Shown: piece after piece, positions 52,201-56,861 of the stretch
Numbering within the stretch: position 1 is the stretch's first letter
Layout: every line of letters begins with the position of its first letter
Notes under the pieces: generated by a model
The model's input: only the letters and a program-made list of their open reading frames with translations
Database searches by the model: none
What the model was told of the DNA's origin: nothing
Position numbers and translations under genes: made by a program
DNA from: Clostridia bacterium
GTDB taxonomy: Bacteria > Bacillota > Clostridia > Christensenellales > UMGS416
Assembly (NCBI GenBank): GCA_030637745.1
Contig: DAOWFX010000043.1
Location: 3,424 to 67,423 of the forward strand
Length of the DNA: 64,000 nt
Reading direction: 5' to 3'

Positions 52201-52739
52201 AACATGGTCATATGGCTGCTATTGGATACGGATTGTATTGCAAATTGATTGAAGATGCAGTAGGAAAGATCAAAGGCGAAGAGCCACAAGAAGCCGTCAA
52301 CGAAGTGACGCTAAATGTTCAGATGGATGCATTTATTCCTGATGAATATATAATAGATATTCAAGATAGACTGGATATGTATAGAGCGATATCATACATA
52401 ACATCACTTAAAGATAAAAGCGATATTATATCAGATATGACAGATAGGTTTGGTGAAGTACCGCAAAGTGTTACAAATTTGATGGATGTTGCATTCCTAA
52501 AATACAAAAGCTCGAAAGTACAAATCAAAATGATCAGTCAAAGAGCGGATAAATTTGTACTTCGCTTTGAAGATGAAATAAATTATGACATGTTGCAATT
52601 GGTTCAATATATCAACAAGAACCATGCACGCTTTTCAGGACAAGATAATCCACAGATATTCCTTCCGATATCAGATCAAGGAATTGCGCATTTAATAGAC
52701 TTTGTACTAGGACTTGTAAAGCTTAGATTGACTCATTAA
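49233..52739 (+). CDS. mfd: transcription-repair coupling factor
   Basis: 1168 aa. UvrB-homology N-terminus, CarD/TRCF RNAP-interacting domain (GDYVVHESHGIGKY), SF2 helicase motifs (GDVGYGKTEVALRAAF, DEEQRFG), TRCF C-terminal domain. Start overlaps the rmuC stop. Confidence 0.95.
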   Translation: MNNALFAPLANSGQFQRIMDFIRGGQSPCSAFGVSGSYKHYLYSTIVQSVKNPILIITPNHIIATQTASDIEGMTGIACHVFSQRSVEIHHVQAASKEVEHRRSALLGDMILKKAKVIIAPIDSLITPLCPVKDFKKAFINIKIGDEISPLDLSKKLTWSLYHRESRVEQVGQFAVRGDIVDIFPVGSEHPIRIEFFGDDIESIRNFDETTQRSLTKIQEIIIYPAMEMPLDITAMERGANIIKSSSKNAEKRAKSIEESSEETHKSDIVAHNARNIDKLVQNGYFEGMENHMRLFYPNACTIDQYLDDPILIFDEITEIKNRSDALNKEYHAVNSSLFKTGHALQELEDLLYTFEQLMDEFSQSFIFTTTAFTTDKLLDYSRTLTFSGSDAMVYRGQFDLLSNDIKTWRREKYKVAILVGTQDRIDRVKETLEQYYITTTPLKKDRAISSGEVALVPLYCAKGFISAVDKFVVLTENELFGRTKRPKKKLHRKKAGEAILNDIKKGDYVVHESHGIGKYDGITRLETLGTKRDYLKLLYLGGDVLYIPTEQMDRVQKYIGADQGKAKLTRLGGKAWENARKKAKGAVADMTEDLIALYAQRNAIKGFQFSIDGEWQRQFEEAFEYQETPDQITSIAEIKEDMQSHEVMDRLLCGDVGYGKTEVALRAAFKAIADKKQVAILCPTTILCHQHYMTICERFKDFPIEKRELSRFVTTAHQNDTIDKLKVGKVDIVVGTHRLLSKDINFKDLGLLVIDEEQRFGVSHKEKIKKLRVGVDVLTMTATPIPRTLHMSLSGIRDISMIETPPEERFPVQTFVTEYDEEMVKGALEREISRGGQVFFVYNRVQSIDMMKRKINELLPNIKIAIAHGQMPSNQLENVMLDFLEKKYDVLLSTTIIENGLDIPNVNTLIVYDTDKFGLSQLYQLRGRVGRSNRLSYAYLTWRPSNMLTETARKRLEAIAQFTEFGSGLKIAMRDLEIRGAGSLLGAKQHGHMAAIGYGLYCKLIEDAVGKIKGEEPQEAVNEVTLNVQMDAFIPDEYIIDIQDRLDMYRAISYITSLKDKSDIISDMTDRFGEVPQSVTNLMDVAFLKYKSSKVQIKMISQRADKFVLRFEDEINYDMLQLVQYINKNHARFSGQDNPQIFLPISDQGIAHLIDFVLGLVKLRLTH

Positions 52740-52752
52740 CTCTCAACAATTT

Positions 52753-53067
52753 TTAGTGAGGAAATAATACTTCAGCTAATCCGAAAATAGTAACCGCAAA
52801 ACCCACAACCATTGAAAGAAATACCATCATAGATCTTGCTTTTTCTTTAATTATTGCGATAATTGCTGTAATTAAAGCAAGAAATGCTGATGTCCAAGCC
52901 AATAGAATGGGTATGAATAGCGAAGGATTGCTGAAGAAAGTATCTCCACCTCGCACATCGAAAATACCGATAATAAGGTAGAATACAATTAGAAAGAATA
53001 CAAAGGAAAGTAATAAAATTGATGAAAGCTTACTAAATTTTGTTTTTGGTAGGAAATAAATTTTCAA
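52753..53067 (-). CDS. small membrane protein (3 TM)
   Basis: The ORF is open to 53121. I prefer the TTG at 53067, which is 8 nt after AAGGAG. Hydrophobic throughout. The start is uncertain. Confidence 0.45.
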   Translation of the reverse strand: MKIYFLPKTKFSKLSSILLLSFVFFLIVFYLIIGIFDVRGGDTFFSNPSLFIPILLAWTSAFLALITAIIAIIKEKARSMMVFLSMVVGFAVTIFGLAEVLFPH

Positions 53068-53280
53068 ATAATCATCTCCTTGTTGCAAATTGAGTATATA
53101 CCCAATAAAACTCATAGTCAATTTTATAGTATTGCTTGTATTTCTATAATATGATTTAAGATTTCAAATTTCTTGAATAAAGGTGTATAATATTCATTAT
53201 CATATTAAATAAACCGACTTTTTCATAAGACGATTTAGTTACTCAACTCAATTTATATATACAATTAAGGAGAATATTTT

Positions 53281-53988
53281 ATGAAGAAGATGGTTATTTT
53301 ACTATTGATTATTATGTTAATCTTTACTGCATGTGGAAAACCCGCAACAAAAGATACGTCCTCTCCAAAGCAAGAAACAAAAGTAGAGGCAAAACAAGAA
53401 GAAAAGATCACATCTACAAAAGCACCGACTGAAGCTCCCACAGAAGCACCAACCCCTGAACCCATACCACTTCCAACAACTGTTGCAGTCGTTGTATGCA
53501 GAGATGGTTATGCACCCAGTGAGTTTCATCCTGTCATGGATGCGCTTGCAGCTGCAGGATATGATATTGTCCTTGTGAGCGATGAAATGGGTGATGCTGA
53601 TGGATTTAGTGAAAAGATTGCGGTAGAAAAAACATTTGAAGATTTCGAAGGTACAGATTTGCTCGGTATCGTTTTAATCGGTGGTAGTGATTCGCTTTGG
53701 GAAAACACTGAATTGCATCGCTTGCTTAATGAAGTACATGAGCTTGATAGGGTGACGGCAGGAATATGCTTAAACTCTGTTACACTTGCTAAAGCAGGAA
53801 TAATAAAAGAAGGACAAGAAGCTTGTTGGGCAAATCATGATACCATGACAGATCCCGTAATGGCAGACCTAGGTGTTGAGGATTCTGGACAACTCGTGAC
53901 TGTAGACGGCAATGTGATTACCGGAAACGGACCGCCTGCATCTGATGAGTTTGCAGCAGAGATTGTCACTGCATTGGATGCGCTATAA
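53281..53988 (+). CDS. DJ-1/PfpI-family protein with lipoprotein signal peptide
   Basis: 235 aa. AAGGAG SD. Lipobox LIFTACGK. KAPTEAPTEAPTPEPIP linker. DJ-1/PfpI core with nucleophile-elbow Cys (VTAGICLNSVTLAKAG). Confidence 0.8.
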   Translation: MKKMVILLLIIMLIFTACGKPATKDTSSPKQETKVEAKQEEKITSTKAPTEAPTEAPTPEPIPLPTTVAVVVCRDGYAPSEFHPVMDALAAAGYDIVLVSDEMGDADGFSEKIAVEKTFEDFEGTDLLGIVLIGGSDSLWENTELHRLLNEVHELDRVTAGICLNSVTLAKAGIIKEGQEACWANHDTMTDPVMADLGVEDSGQLVTVDGNVITGNGPPASDEFAAEIVTALDAL

Positions 53989-54045
53989 CGAGTTCTATCT
54001 ATTGTAGAAAAATTGTCGAAAGGTAGTCTCTTTTGATTGAAATAA

Positions 54046-54256
54046 TTGACAATTATTTGCATGACAATTATAATTGTTACGTGGTAAATCTCATAATAGG
54101 AGATGAATGATATGACATATATGCAGGTGAAAAGGATCTAAAGCATATTAAGCTTAAGCAAAGATAAACGTGTACTTATAGTATATGCTTAGCTTGGCTT
54201 GCGTCACAAACCACATGACTGCATATTTACAGACGTGTTGCGTCTGTTTTCTTTAT
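54046..54256 (+). promoter_or_regulatory. leader region: consensus promoter, SD plus 9-codon leader ORF, alternative hairpins and terminator (candidate translational attenuator)
   Basis: TTGACA (54046-54051), 17 nt, TATAAT (54069-54074). AGGAG (54098-54102), 9 nt, then ATG at 54112 encoding MTYMQVKRI with stop at 54139-54141. Mutually complementary segments: ATATGCAG (54119-54126), AAGCATAT (54141-54148), ATATGCTT (54183-54190), CTGCATAT (54219-54226). The terminator at 54229-54256 follows. Confidence 0.6.
54229..54256 (+). terminator. intrinsic terminator inside the methyltransferase leader
   Basis: ACAGACG-tgttg-CGTCTGT followed by TTTCTTT. It ends about 35 nt before the AAGGAG SD of the gene at 54305. 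Confidence 0.7.
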
Positions 54257-54304
54257 ATCCTTTTTCTATTCTAAATTTTTAAGAAAACTAAGGAGAATAA
54301 ATAT

Positions 54305-55078
54305 ATGACATTAAAAGAATTGTATAATGATTGGTATCCCGAATATTATGACAGTATAGAAACACAAACATATGACTATGAACTTATGCTCGAACTTCTG
54401 GGCACACCGAAAAAGGTGCTTGAAATCTGTTGTGGAACAGGACGCGTACTTTTGCCTCTTGCAAAAGCGGGGCACGAAACGCACGGTATAGATACAAGTT
54501 GCCACATGCTTTCGCGCTTAATGAAAAAAGCCGAAGGAGTAAGCAATATCCACATTCAGTTAGACAATGTGCTGACCGCAGACTGGGGAACGGGATTTGA
54601 TGTTGTACTTCTCGCAGGAAACATCATAATTAACATCGAAGGAAGCGAAGACTACAAGGCAGACCAGCAATTGCTCATAACAAAAGCATATGATGCGCTT
54701 AAACCTGGTGGCTATCTACTAATGGACAACGATGGTAGATATAAACCCGAGACACAGTTTAAAACGTTCGATATTCCTACAATAAGAAAGATCCCGACAG
54801 ATTCAAAAGGCATCACTGCAAAGAGAATTTTCCTATGGTCTAAGTATGATATCAAAAATCAAATTTGTACTGGAAAGAACTTATTTGAATTGACCACAAA
54901 AGAGGGAAAAATATTTGTCAAAGAAAAAGAATATCTAAAGCACATTCCATATATTCACCAAATGAAACAATGGGTGGAAAATGCAGGCTTTGTGATTGAG
55001 CATGAGTGGGGTGATCATTATAGAAACCTTATCACAAAAGATACAAATAGAGCAATATATTGGGCAAGAAAACCATAA
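54305..55078 (+). CDS. class I SAM-dependent methyltransferase
   Basis: 257 aa. Motif I VLEICCGTGRVLLPLA, followed by the acidic HGIDTS. AAGGAG SD. Confidence 0.85.
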   Translation: MTLKELYNDWYPEYYDSIETQTYDYELMLELLGTPKKVLEICCGTGRVLLPLAKAGHETHGIDTSCHMLSRLMKKAEGVSNIHIQLDNVLTADWGTGFDVVLLAGNIIINIEGSEDYKADQQLLITKAYDALKPGGYLLMDNDGRYKPETQFKTFDIPTIRKIPTDSKGITAKRIFLWSKYDIKNQICTGKNLFELTTKEGKIFVKEKEYLKHIPYIHQMKQWVENAGFVIEHEWGDHYRNLITKDTNRAIYWARKP

Positions 55079-55090
55079 CAAAAAAACAAA

Positions 55091-55126
55091 GTAGCACAAT
55101 AATTGAACTTGTTGTGCTGCTTTTAT
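55091..55126 (+). terminator. intrinsic terminator
   Basis: GTAGCACAA-taattgaac-TTGTGCTGC (9 bp with one G-U) followed by TTTT. Confidence 0.75.
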
Positions 55127-55232
55127 CACCTATATATTGTTATTTCAATGGATATTTGTATTATTATAACAATCATAGCATGCTATAATTTGGATAAATT
55201 GATATTTAATAAAAGCAAGAGGGAGCTGTGCA

Positions 55233-56861
55233 ATGAAGAAAACTGTATTATTAGGATTATTATGTTTCATCATTTTGATGACTCAAGTAGGGTGTGCCAA
55301 AGCACCAACCTATGAACACTCTGATGAAATCATGAACGTCCAAGAAGAAGCAACTGCAAGTATCGCACCAGATGCTACAGCACAGCCGGACAGTCCTGTT
55401 GCAACAAAGGAAATAAGGCCACCATCCAAAACTGTTGATGTATATTTTACAGGAGTATCTCATGATGGAAAGCCGTGGAACTGGATGGCTATCGATGAGA
55501 TGCTCGTGGCGCTGAACGAAAAACTATTAGAGGATCTCAACATCAATGTTAACTTCAATTGGCTTTCAACTGAAGAGTATTCTGATGAGATATCGATGCT
55601 TATTGCATCCGATGATGCGCCGGATATGATACAGGTAGATGAAGGTAGTGCGGATGTAAGGCTATGGTCTAGCGAGGGTTACATTGCAAACATCTATGAA
55701 CTTGCACATAGCCATATGCCCAAAACCATGGCAACTATAGGCAATTTCCCAGACTTTATTAGCACACAAGCAGCAGATGAAGCGTTGTATGTATTACCCG
55801 GGATTCAATACAACGCTGTGCGGTATACTGTCAGTGTTACAAAAGAAATAAGTGATGAATATCAAAAAGAAATTAATACATTAGAAGACTATGAAAACTT
55901 CTTAGAATGGGTAAAGCAAACAAAACCAGAAATGACACCAGGAGTTATTGAAACGAATGCAGTGATTGATATAGCTATTAAAGGTGCAGGATACAAAGAT
56001 GATGTATCAACCTTTTATACACACATAGAAAACAATAAACTTGTCAGTAAGCCCATAGAGGAAATCCCTGAGTTTCACAAAGCATATGAGATGCTACAAA
56101 GATGGGAAGAAGAACAATATTTTAGTATATTCTCTGGATTTACTTGGTGGATGGCAATGCGAGAAGGAAGATTGGCCTCAGCTCTTTTTCCATATGAATT
56201 CGTGCGAGAAAGTGCAATTTATGCACGAGATAGTTATAGATTCATCAATCATGTATTATACGAGGATACAGAGATGATACGAAGCAAAAACACCACAGGC
56301 TTTGCATTTTGTGAAAATGGTGATGCAATGATTGAAGCGATGCAATTTCTAGAATGGACACATGAATCTCAGGATAATTATGATTTGATTCAATATGGAG
56401 TGATAGACAAACAGTATAATCTTATTGATAACATGCTAAATTTTCCACCTGAGATATATACACATAATACTTTTGATTGGGAAGGCAGTATGTGCTTTAA
56501 AGATATTACACTAGATCGCCAAATCATCAACGAAGCCGTGGATGATTATTATGCATTTATACAATCGGTATCCATAGATAACACGATAACCAGACAGCAA
56601 TATTATGATAATGCAGGTATTGATATCATTGTAGTCGATAAAAAGCTACGAAGCGATACCACATTCTTAGATGATATCAATAGTAAAATCGAATTGAATC
56701 TCGAGGGTCGAGAAAAAGAGTATTCAGGATTGGTAGCAGTGTGGGAATTAAATGATTTTTCGTTGACAACAGATGAAGTGATTAAGAAGTTATCCGATGC
56801 AGGGGGTACGAAACTGGCAGCACTACTCAATGAGAAAAATGAAATGATCTACTATGATTAA
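55233..56861 (+). CDS. LplA-like solute-binding lipoprotein, tandem paralog 1
   Basis: 542 aa. GAGGGAG SD. Lipobox MTQVGC. Same architecture as 2887..4461 and 6512..7957. Roughly four-fifths identical (by eye) to the next gene. Confidence 0.7.
   Translation: MKKTVLLGLLCFIILMTQVGCAKAPTYEHSDEIMNVQEEATASIAPDATAQPDSPVATKEIRPPSKTVDVYFTGVSHDGKPWNWMAIDEMLVALNEKLLEDLNINVNFNWLSTEEYSDEISMLIASDDAPDMIQVDEGSADVRLWSSEGYIANIYELAHSHMPKTMATIGNFPDFISTQAADEALYVLPGIQYNAVRYTVSVTKEISDEYQKEINTLEDYENFLEWVKQTKPEMTPGVIETNAVIDIAIKGAGYKDDVSTFYTHIENNKLVSKPIEEIPEFHKAYEMLQRWEEEQYFSIFSGFTWWMAMREGRLASALFPYEFVRESAIYARDSYRFINHVLYEDTEMIRSKNTTGFAFCENGDAMIEAMQFLEWTHESQDNYDLIQYGVIDKQYNLIDNMLNFPPEIYTHNTFDWEGSMCFKDITLDRQIINEAVDDYYAFIQSVSIDNTITRQQYYDNAGIDIIVVDKKLRSDTTFLDDINSKIELNLEGREKEYSGLVAVWELNDFSLTTDEVIKKLSDAGGTKLAALLNEKNEMIYYD

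Follow-up and report, generated by a model that had tools for sequence, protein, structure and literature searches.

Organization of the locus

The 64,000-nucleotide (nt) stretch analysed here (the window) belongs to contig DAOWFX010000043.1 of the Clostridia bacterium assembly GCA_030637745.1. It contains a gene for an S-adenosylmethionine (SAM)-dependent methyltransferase that is preceded by a leader with its own promoter, a short upstream open reading frame (ORF) and an intrinsic terminator (Table 1). Judged by comparison with related loci, this leader is a real, conserved and hitherto undescribed cis-regulatory element. We further propose that it works as a ribosome-mediated transcription attenuator whose nearest known counterpart is the tlrB leader of Bacillus subtilis, a reading to which we give slightly better than even chances.

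A preliminary description of this region, based on the letters alone, had listed a perfect TTGACA-17-TATAAT promoter, an AGGAG-9 nt-ATG start of an ORF encoding MTYMQVKRI-stop, four mutually complementary segments, a terminator and the AAGGAG-ATG of the methyltransferase gene. All of these elements are found back. The promoter scores 12/12 and is the sole match with this score within 52500-56000 (a scan of 3.5 kb); from its spacing, the transcription start is predicted at about G54081. The ATG of the short ORF is located at 54112, where the earlier text implied approximately 54113. A second in-frame ATG at 54103 abuts the Shine-Dalgarno (SD) sequence, and related leaders do not keep it in frame. 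The complementary segments comprise two copies of ATATGC (segment 1 at 54119-54124 and segment 3 at 54183-54188) and two of GCATAT (segment 2 at 54143-54148 and segment 4 at 54221-54226, earlier given as 54141 and 54219).

As RNA, the terminator has a stem of 8 base pairs (ACAGACGU/GCGUCUGU), a GUU loop and a UUUCUUU tail, with an energy of -9.5 kcal/mol. It is the sole terminator-like site in the 3.5 kb scanned and lies 57 nt upstream of the methyltransferase gene. No promoter is evident in these 57 nt, and expression of the gene therefore requires read-through. The preliminary description also pointed to a 10-nt direct repeat as a possible additional operator. The repeat TGACAATTAT is indeed present at 54047 and 54062 (span 54047-54071), where it overlaps the promoter, but it is absent from every related promoter compared and is for this reason probably no operator.

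Table 1. Features of the leader and the methyltransferase gene in window coordinates
Feature	Position	Strand	Details
Sigma-70-type promoter	54046-54074	+	-35 TTGACA 54046-54051, 17-nt spacer, -10 TATAAT 54069-54074
P1, 5' strand GUGGU	54081-54085	+	Predicted RNA 5' end; pairs with ACCAC 54210-54214
P2 hairpin, AUCUC-7 nt-GAGAU	54088-54104	+	3' arm carries the SD of the ORF; nearly invariant in 12 leaders
SD of upstream ORF, AGGAG	54098-54102	+	9-nt spacer to ATG 54112
Upstream ORF	54112-54141	+	ATG ACA TAT ATG CAG GTG AAA AGG ATC TAA, MTYMQVKRI-stop, 9 codons
P3, 5' strand UGAC	54113-54116	+	Start codon plus 1; pairs with GUCA 54203-54206 in the window block UGCGUCA
P4 (segments 1:2)	54119-54148	+	AUAUGC 54119-54124 (codons 3-4) with GCAUAU 54143-54148 (just past the stop)
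Internal SD-like AGGUGA	54125-54130	+	In the upstream ORF; its GUG codon is 4 codons before the stop
P5, single long hairpin	54150-54199	+	Holds segment 3 (54183-54188)
Conserved block UGCGUCACAAACCACAUGAC	54200-54219	+	P3 3' strand, P1 3' strand 54210-54214, linker CACAUGAC 54212-54219; nearly invariant
Candidate antiterminator hairpin	54213-54238	+	ACAUG 54213-54217 with CGUGU 54234-54238; CUG 54219-54221 with CAG 54230-54232
Pre-terminator strand CUGCAUAU (segment 4)	54219-54226	+	Forms 8 perfect pairs with the ORF sequence AUAUGCAG, 54119-54126
Intrinsic terminator	54229-54254	+	Stem ACAGACGT-GTT-GCGTCTGT 54229-54247, then TTTCTTT
Methyltransferase gene	54305-55078 (with SD 54290-55078)	+	SD AAGGAG 54290-54295, 9-nt spacer, ATG 54305, 257 amino acids (aa)

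Distribution and conservation of the leader

Eleven further copies of the leader (type A) were found in uncultured Christensenellales-like genomes, giving a set of 12 with the window. The methyltransferases encoded behind these copies are 60-74% identical to the window protein, and many further orthologues at 30-48% identity exist in other Clostridia, Paenibacillus and others. At all 12 loci the leader lies on the same strand and immediately 5' of the methyltransferase operon. It directly precedes the methyltransferase gene in L083, L084, L097, L098 and L100; in L087, L003, L109, L107, L099 and L085 it is followed by a lysine-rich ORF of approximately 88 aa and then by the methyltransferase gene.

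The similarity among the 12 leaders amounts to nhmmer E values of 1e-18 to 1e-35 and to covariance model scores of 78-140 bits, and their -35 and -10 boxes are placed identically. The flanking intergenic DNA of the related loci, including the DNA behind the terminator and the promoter spacers, is unalignable. Because the whole unit is kept in 11 more loci while its flanks cannot be aligned, the leader is more than a chance arrangement. The window leader also folds modestly better than its shuffles (z = -2.1).

Within the window's own genome the leader is single-copy (nhmmer). A DNA pattern applied to 23 genomes of the family and the covariance model applied to 399 genomes of the class both matched the window's own genome only, and from these scans we conclude that the leader is rare and lineage-restricted. 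A protein-based metagenome scan for further leaders found none, and a DNA pattern scan of metagenomes gave three chance matches in unrelated coding DNA and no further leader. Plasmid-borne homologues of the methyltransferase were not found either, and a full-text search of the literature gave no description of this leader. Among the 4227 families of Rfam nothing reaches the gathering score across the whole window; with E values up to 10, region 53950-54350 yields snoRNA-type noise only, and the leaders of 20 related loci have no match. Thus, the Rfam scan that the preliminary description had suggested names no known riboswitch class that accounts for the leader structure. As a compact and well-conserved RNA, the leader is a candidate for a new cis-regulatory family in Rfam.

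RNA fold of the leader

The 12 leaders share one fold, which consists of a closing helix P1, the helices P2, P3 and P4, a variable hairpin P5 and a conserved linker with complementarity to the terminator top. Across the set GUGG(C/U) begins 6-7 nt past the -10 box, so P1 would be formed by the extreme 5' end of the RNA. Its sequence is GUGGC/GCCAC in the relatives and GUGGU/ACCAC in the window and L085, where both strands are changed; L099 and L107 show G-U variants. The SD of the short ORF, located in P2, is extended (GGAGAUGAU) and resembles the full complement of the 16S rRNA 3' end. P3 has its 3' strand in a conserved CGCGUCA. The helix is longer in L100 and L085 through the synonymous change ACA to ACG, nonexistent in L107 and L099, and built from other nucleotides in L003. 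P4 is full or weakened in ten leaders and missing in L100 and L003. Each of the 12 leaders has a single hairpin equivalent to P5, with differing arm sequences (z -0.4 to -4.9), and the linker follows the consensus CACAUGA(C/U).

When the alignment columns are compared, 82.8% of the cells are paired, whereas slid partners reach 24-58%. Covariation between columns is not significant, as there is little variation in P1-P4 (P2, being nearly invariant, shows no covariation) and P5 cannot be aligned. The fold thus rests on conservation, P5 and the terminator rather than on statistics for P1-P4.

In the preliminary description the four segments were expected to pair either 1:4 plus 2:3 or 1:2 plus 3:4. 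One part of this scheme survives, as the 1:2 pairing (P4) is widely kept, but segment 3 is located in a hairpin whose sequence is specific to the window and the 1:4 pairing is strong in three of the 12 leaders only. What is conserved as a fold is a multi-helix junction, which the scheme did not foresee.

Terminator and candidate antiterminators

In 10 of the 11 relatives a terminator occupies the equivalent position, and the changes in its stem are compensated (GGCG/CGCC, GACG/CGUC, CAGAC/GUCUG). L107 has, instead of a separate terminator, a hairpin with U-run that incorporates the SD of the next gene. The invariant linker stays complementary to the changing terminator tops. Its pairs are CAUGAC:GUUAUG in eight leaders, ACAUG:CGUGU in the window, CAUG:CAUG in two leaders and CCACAUG:CAUAUGG in one. 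A linker hairpin of the same topology is present in 10/12 leaders and, with UGC(A):(U)GCA as its inner helix, encloses most of the 5' arm of the terminator. For the window its energy is -6.2 kcal/mol and it would sequester 6 of the 8 nt in this arm. This pattern of pairing makes the linker hairpin a candidate antiterminator.

Other pairings were considered as well. GCGUC in the 3' strand of P3 can pair with GRCGY in the terminator arm; this candidate antiterminator is present and not clearly better than the linker hairpin. The pairing of AUAUGCAG with CUGCAUAU (1:4) reaches -10.7 kcal/mol with a shuffle fraction of 0.014. It is seen in the window, L085 and L083 and not in the other nine leaders, and was therefore rejected as a general feature. 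A weak UCCUU:AAGGA hairpin predicted over the SD of the methyltransferase gene (-6.3 kcal/mol) is no better than shuffles (z = +0.89), which leaves an SD-sequestering hairpin before this gene unsupported.

Evidence for translation of the short ORF

Several observations favour translation of the upstream ORF. The SD, AUG and stop codon are present in 12/12 leaders, and the ORF has 8-10 codons in 11 of them. Its length changes in steps of three nt (+3 nt in L107 and L099, -3 nt in L003), with L087 as the exception, and synonymous changes occur (ACA/ACG, TAT/TAC, GTG/GTA, AGG/AGA, ATC/ATT). Moreover, L107 and L099 retain the AUG although P3 is absent there. The encoded type-A peptides are MTYMQVKRI (window), MTYMQVKRN, MTHMQVKRD, MTYMQVNRI, MKFMQVERI, MTYIKVSEI, MTYTKVSEI, MTYIKVGEN, MKLTKVSK, MKYMQKVIRT and MKHMQKVNRS.

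The AGGUGA inside the window ORF forms a duplex of -8.4 kcal/mol with the 16S rRNA 3' tail. Comparable internal SD-like sites (<= -7.4 kcal/mol) occur in nine of the 11 type-A ORFs, which are related sequences and do not form an independent count, against a background of 9.5% among 1786 long-ORF ends of the same genome. With the standard distance between SD and P site, such a site would keep the ribosome at a point where its P site is filled by the last sense codon and its A site by the stop codon. The strongest argument that the ORF is likely translated comes from the short-ORF leaders across the wider methyltransferase family.

Leaders of distant orthologues

At least 24 of approximately 52 distant orthologues (35-45% identity) are preceded by a different leader (type B), which consists of an SD, an AUG and an ORF of 16-21 codons. 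The N-terminus of the peptide varies freely while the frame stays open, and the end reads (R/K/G/W)R(V/A)T-I-(L/F)-stop. This end is encoded in a GGAGGG-N14-CCCUCC hairpin located about 10 nt before the GGAGG of the gene. Type-B loci are found within L005-L056 (for example L030:2880-3000, L009, L040 and L056; cultured: L022, Paenibacillus lycopersici 12200R-189), and the leader has no match in Rfam.

A third design (type C) is present about 200 nt upstream of the gene in L007, L008 and L019. Here, and similarly in L069:2100-2300, the SD is contained in a hairpin or long-range helix and an ORF of 9-10 codons (MRTRMMVVHL, MRKRSMVILS, MSNRAMVINS, MTFMMVIIT) is followed by a terminator. Between its leader and methyltransferase gene, L069 has a co-transcribed nitroreductase-like ORF.

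The leader types are alike in the SD-spacer-AUG region and in an N-terminal M-(T/K)-(Y/H/F). Types A, B and C all carry an SD-like run (AGGUGA or GGAGGGUGA) with a GUG or GCG codon four codons before the stop. Given that the distant orthologues have two other short-ORF leaders, the methyltransferase family appears to be habitually placed behind translated leaders. As these leaders come in three designs, it can be argued that expression of the family is tied to the state of the ribosome.

Some further observations concern the type-B loci. The CCCUCC strand could pair with either GGAGGG or the SD of the gene, which often starts with TTG. The promoters of L012, L023, L026, L030 and L040 have an inverted repeat (TTATACCGC-N3-5-GCGTTATAAT) that overlaps the -10 box and may serve as an operator or form a 5' hairpin. 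L023 has in addition a T-box leader downstream of the methyltransferase gene (L023:4609-4878; Rfam RF00230, 124.6 bits), which is unrelated to the type-A leader.

The methyltransferase

The preliminary description called the regulated gene a generic class I methyltransferase and not an obvious Erm, and this agrees with the domain searches. In Pfam the window protein matches only generic class I families (Methyltransf_31/25/23/12/11). NCBIfam gives 21 matches at E values up to 0.01, where daptide-type and corrinoid-associated methylases score highest, though far under their cut-offs (best daptide_MTase with 57 bits against a cut-off of 175). Neither PF00398 nor the NCBIfam Erm models are among its matches.

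The predicted structure has a pLDDT of 91. By sequence and fold, its neighbours in the Protein Data Bank (PDB) are CcbJ, 3d2l, 1wzn, CypM, TylM1 and glycine/sarcosine N-methyltransferases; YunM, KedS8, CalS10 and NmbA are further neighbours of the model. CcbJ is a lincosamide N-methylase, CypM and YunM are methylases of peptide N-termini, and TylM1, KedS8 and CalS10 are amino-sugar N-methylases. The top 50 fold matches include no RlmA structure, and no rRNA methylase is found among the neighbours. A zinc-ribbon (Cys4) N-terminus is missing as well: no cysteine precedes the CC of the SAM motif (residues 42-43), and Pfam reports no such domain. An identity as rRNA methylase, either Erm or RlmA(II)/TlrB, was rejected on the basis of domain matches, fold neighbours and the missing Cys4. 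From the model, the enzyme is probably an amine-type N-methyltransferase that acts on a small molecule or peptide and not on rRNA.

Proposed mechanism

Transcription would begin approximately 7 nt past the TATAAT, and the first 140 nt or so would fold into the junction that is closed at P1 by the RNA 5' end. Within this junction the SD of the ORF (P2), its start codon (P3) and codons 3-4 (P4) would all be paired. By default the terminator would form, an RNA of about 170 nt would be released and the gene would be off. A ribosome on the ORF would make the ORF release the pre-terminator region (in the window CUGCAUAU plus P1 and P3). The released region would then act as antiterminator by pairing with the terminator's 5' arm and its top, allowing RNA polymerase to read into the gene. 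In the window, the 1:4 pairing would withhold CUGCAUAU from the antiterminator as long as no ribosome covers the ORF. A stall would most likely occur at the end of the ORF, where the spacing of AGGUGA would place the stop codon in the A site of the held ribosome. The expected trigger would be translation stress, caused by a ribosome-targeting compound or by a metabolite that is sensed through the nascent peptide. The analysis shows the parts, how they are conserved and that no known RNA family is present. We infer that the ORF is translated and that ribosomes stall on it, which pairing serves as antiterminator, which way the switch works, what induces it and what the enzyme modifies. Of the erm-like attenuator logic put forward in the preliminary description, a translated-leader mechanism remains the best reading; the erm likeness, however, is loose, as control is terminator-based and the SD of the gene is not convincingly sequestered.

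Comparison with known systems

The tlrB (yxjB) leader of B. subtilis, which controls a methyltransferase, encodes a 9-aa peptide (MIIQFIRYR), contains a terminator and folds in a way that hinders its own translation; it responds to tylosin-dependent ribosome stalling by both transcription and translation attenuation (PMC6851288). Both leaders thus have an SD-led ORF of nine codons that is followed by an intrinsic terminator and a SAM methyltransferase gene. In both, RNA structure impedes translation of the leader ORF, and in both the whole nascent peptide would lie in the exit tunnel if the ribosome stalls near the stop codon. Nonetheless, there is no sequence similarity, and the R/K-X-R/K motif is not conserved in the leader described here. 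TlrB is the 23S rRNA G748 methylase RlmA(II), whereas the window enzyme has no Cys4 and is amine-methylase-like. The SD of the methyltransferase gene is not convincingly sequestered in the window. The position of the ORF differs as well. A ribosome stalled on tlrB directly blocks the terminator and the SD hairpin, whereas the present ORF ends about 90 nt ahead of the terminator, embedded in the P1-closed junction, and because of this distance an intermediate antiterminator is needed.

With the ermC, ermB and ermD leaders, which control Erm 23S rRNA methylases by translational attenuation, the present leader would share the principle, drawn on in the preliminary description, that a ribosome stalled on a short ORF re-pairs downstream segments in front of a SAM methyltransferase gene. 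It differs from them in that the window enzyme is no Erm, in the use of a terminator instead of a masked gene SD, and in a peptide without IFVI, RLR or another known arrest motif. A short ORF combined with a Rho-independent terminator is also found in the 5' leaders msrDL-msrD/mef(E)-mel, bmrB-bmrCD and vmlR, where ribosomes mediate transcription attenuation of genes for antibiotic response (PMC10314930, PMC4191407). The 6-aa peptide MsrDL stalls the ribosome when the stop codon occupies the A site and thereby relieves a terminator (PMC10314930), and this is the position that the internal SD-like spacing favours here. In contrast, the genes regulated by the msrD, bmrCD and vmlR leaders encode ABC-F proteins or ABC transporters, the ribosome stalled in the msrD leader itself obstructs the terminator, and none of these leaders has sequence or structural homology to the present one.

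Points against the attenuator and alternative explanations

A number of results weigh against ribosome-mediated attenuation. Whether a ribosome footprint of 28 nt covers the start, the middle or the stop of the ORF, all 12 leaders retain the terminator in their minimum-energy fold. For transcripts cut before the 3' arm of the terminator, pairing of the 5' arm is likewise independent of the footprint, so thermodynamics alone shows no switch. Since the footprint-masked folds keep the terminator, the switch itself is something we infer. The preliminary description had expected a ribosome on the short ORF to change the fold; the pairing of AUAUGCAG with CUGCAUAU, which is part of this idea, is there in the window, but the simulated footprint frees no terminator. 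The candidate antiterminators are weak: they reach -4 to -8 kcal/mol, the terminators -9.5 to -13.4 kcal/mol. Compared with shuffled linkers they do only marginally better, with a fraction as good of 0.016 in the window and 0.03-0.31 elsewhere. The covariation score of the fold equals that of shuffles, and one pair alone changes on both sides. Regarding the ORF, both its SD and its AUG are engaged in base pairs, an unusual state for a sensor ORF, and in L087 it is frameshifted, on an error-prone contig rich in broken genes. None of the motifs IFVI, IAVV and RLR / R/K-X-R/K occurs consistently among the 11 type-A peptides. Finally, the enzyme resembles a small-molecule methylase, and the link to translation stress is for that reason not obvious.

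Part of these points would suit a ligand-binding riboswitch, in which the P1-P5 junction is the aptamer that binds a metabolite or a xenobiotic, such as the substrate of the enzyme or a SAM-related compound, and the ORF-like features are structural nucleotides or a secondary layer of control. As P1 stacks directly on the linker hairpin, abutting it without a spacer, the ligand would choose between antiterminator and terminator. Like the riboswitches of the terminator type, the leader combines a P1-closed multi-helix domain, here compact and with P5 as variable peripheral hairpin, with a subsequent terminator and a high nucleotide conservation, which extends to nearly every position of the stretches +1 to about +75 and +120 to the terminator while the flanks are unalignable. 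The paired instead of exposed SD and AUG fit this explanation too, as do the ribosome-masked folds in which no switch is seen. Against it stands the conserved SD-AUG-ORF-stop: the AUG and the in-frame stop survive the loss of their helices, indels come in threes, and the differing leaders of the orthologues share a translated short ORF and no common aptamer. With Rfam blank at gathering score and giving noise only at E up to 10, and with an element that is bound to one gene family and present in a single genomic copy, we regard a riboswitch as rather unlikely.

ErmC binds its own mRNA, and by analogy the methyltransferase or the lysine-rich 88-aa protein might bind the leader and set termination or mRNA stability, in which case the ORF would be incidental. 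The strict linkage of the leader to the methyltransferase operon is in line with such autoregulation. A very basic protein of 88 aa without known domain, encoded after the leader in six of the 12 loci, would be a suitable binder, and a 5'-terminal P1 would also shield the RNA end. However, the window and five other loci keep an intact leader without the 88-aa gene, and the fold relatives of the enzyme are small-molecule or peptide methylases and no RNA binders. Because this explanation also leaves the conserved SD-AUG-stop and the short-ORF leaders of distant orthologues unaccounted for, we find it quite improbable. Even less credit is given to an attenuator of the trp-leader type that reads the supply of methionine or another amino acid, with a pause at the internal Met codon (codon 4) during shortage of Met-tRNA, which would couple a SAM-using enzyme to methionine status. 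This codon is AUG in 7/11 type-A ORFs and type-C ORFs have M or MM before V, but there is at most one regulatory codon and no run of sensed codons, codon 4 is Ile or Thr in L097, L098, L100 and L003, and type-B ORFs have no internal Met. Besides, switching on a SAM consumer during methionine shortage is physiologically implausible. Promoter, SD-led ORF and terminator could also be viewed as a complete unit of their own, a gene for a small RNA of about 170 nt or a 9-aa micropeptide, with the methyltransferase expressed separately. Yet the 57 nt between terminator and methyltransferase gene contain no promoter-like site, the unit is found 5' of the methyltransferase operon and on the same strand in every one of the 12 loci, and in L107 the terminator is merged with the ribosome-binding site of the next gene; we thus hold an independent small gene to be very unlikely.

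Implications

Short-ORF attenuators are classic sensors of antibiotic-response genes, and new ones tend to reveal functions in resistance or stress. If the leader is such a ribosome-mediated attenuator, finding its inducer and substrate could uncover a new inducible activity that modifies a drug or metabolite, as well as a new stalling peptide. The methyltransferase family is widespread in Clostridia of gut and digester and occurs also in cultured Paenibacillus, with leaders of three designs. A bolder idea, which we put forward as speculation and think rather doubtful, is that type A and the types B and C, found elsewhere in Clostridia and Paenibacillus, are versions of one sensor. In each, a very short nascent peptide and an internal SD-like site would hold the ribosome once the stop codon has entered the A site and report either an insult to translation termination or peptidyl transfer or a metabolite bound in the tunnel, and the induced amine N-methyltransferase would counteract the compound. 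If true, this would represent both a new class of arrest peptides and a new protection mechanism by methylation of a drug or metabolite.

Neighbouring genes

In the relatives, the neighbouring genes encode DJ-1/PfpI, glyoxalase, TetR, AraC-GyrI-like, FMN reductase and MATE proteins, which gives these loci a xenobiotic-response flavour. The lysine-rich 88-aa ORF (L003:2722-2988 and its counterparts in L087, L099, L107, L109 and L085) reads MYDKFKTYEKNH...KRLKNFIKHGH(I/V)D; it has no match in Pfam and is missing from the window. Three loci have an ORF of 216 aa between the DJ-1 gene and the leader (L083:2107-2757, L098:2109-2759 and L100:690-1340) that does not occur in the window. Its match to aminoglycoside 2''-adenylyltransferase is weak and below threshold (E 0.004). 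In L085 an unrelated SAM methyltransferase of 277 aa (L085:1293-2126) is encoded between the 88-aa ORF and the orthologue, as part of the same leader-controlled operon.

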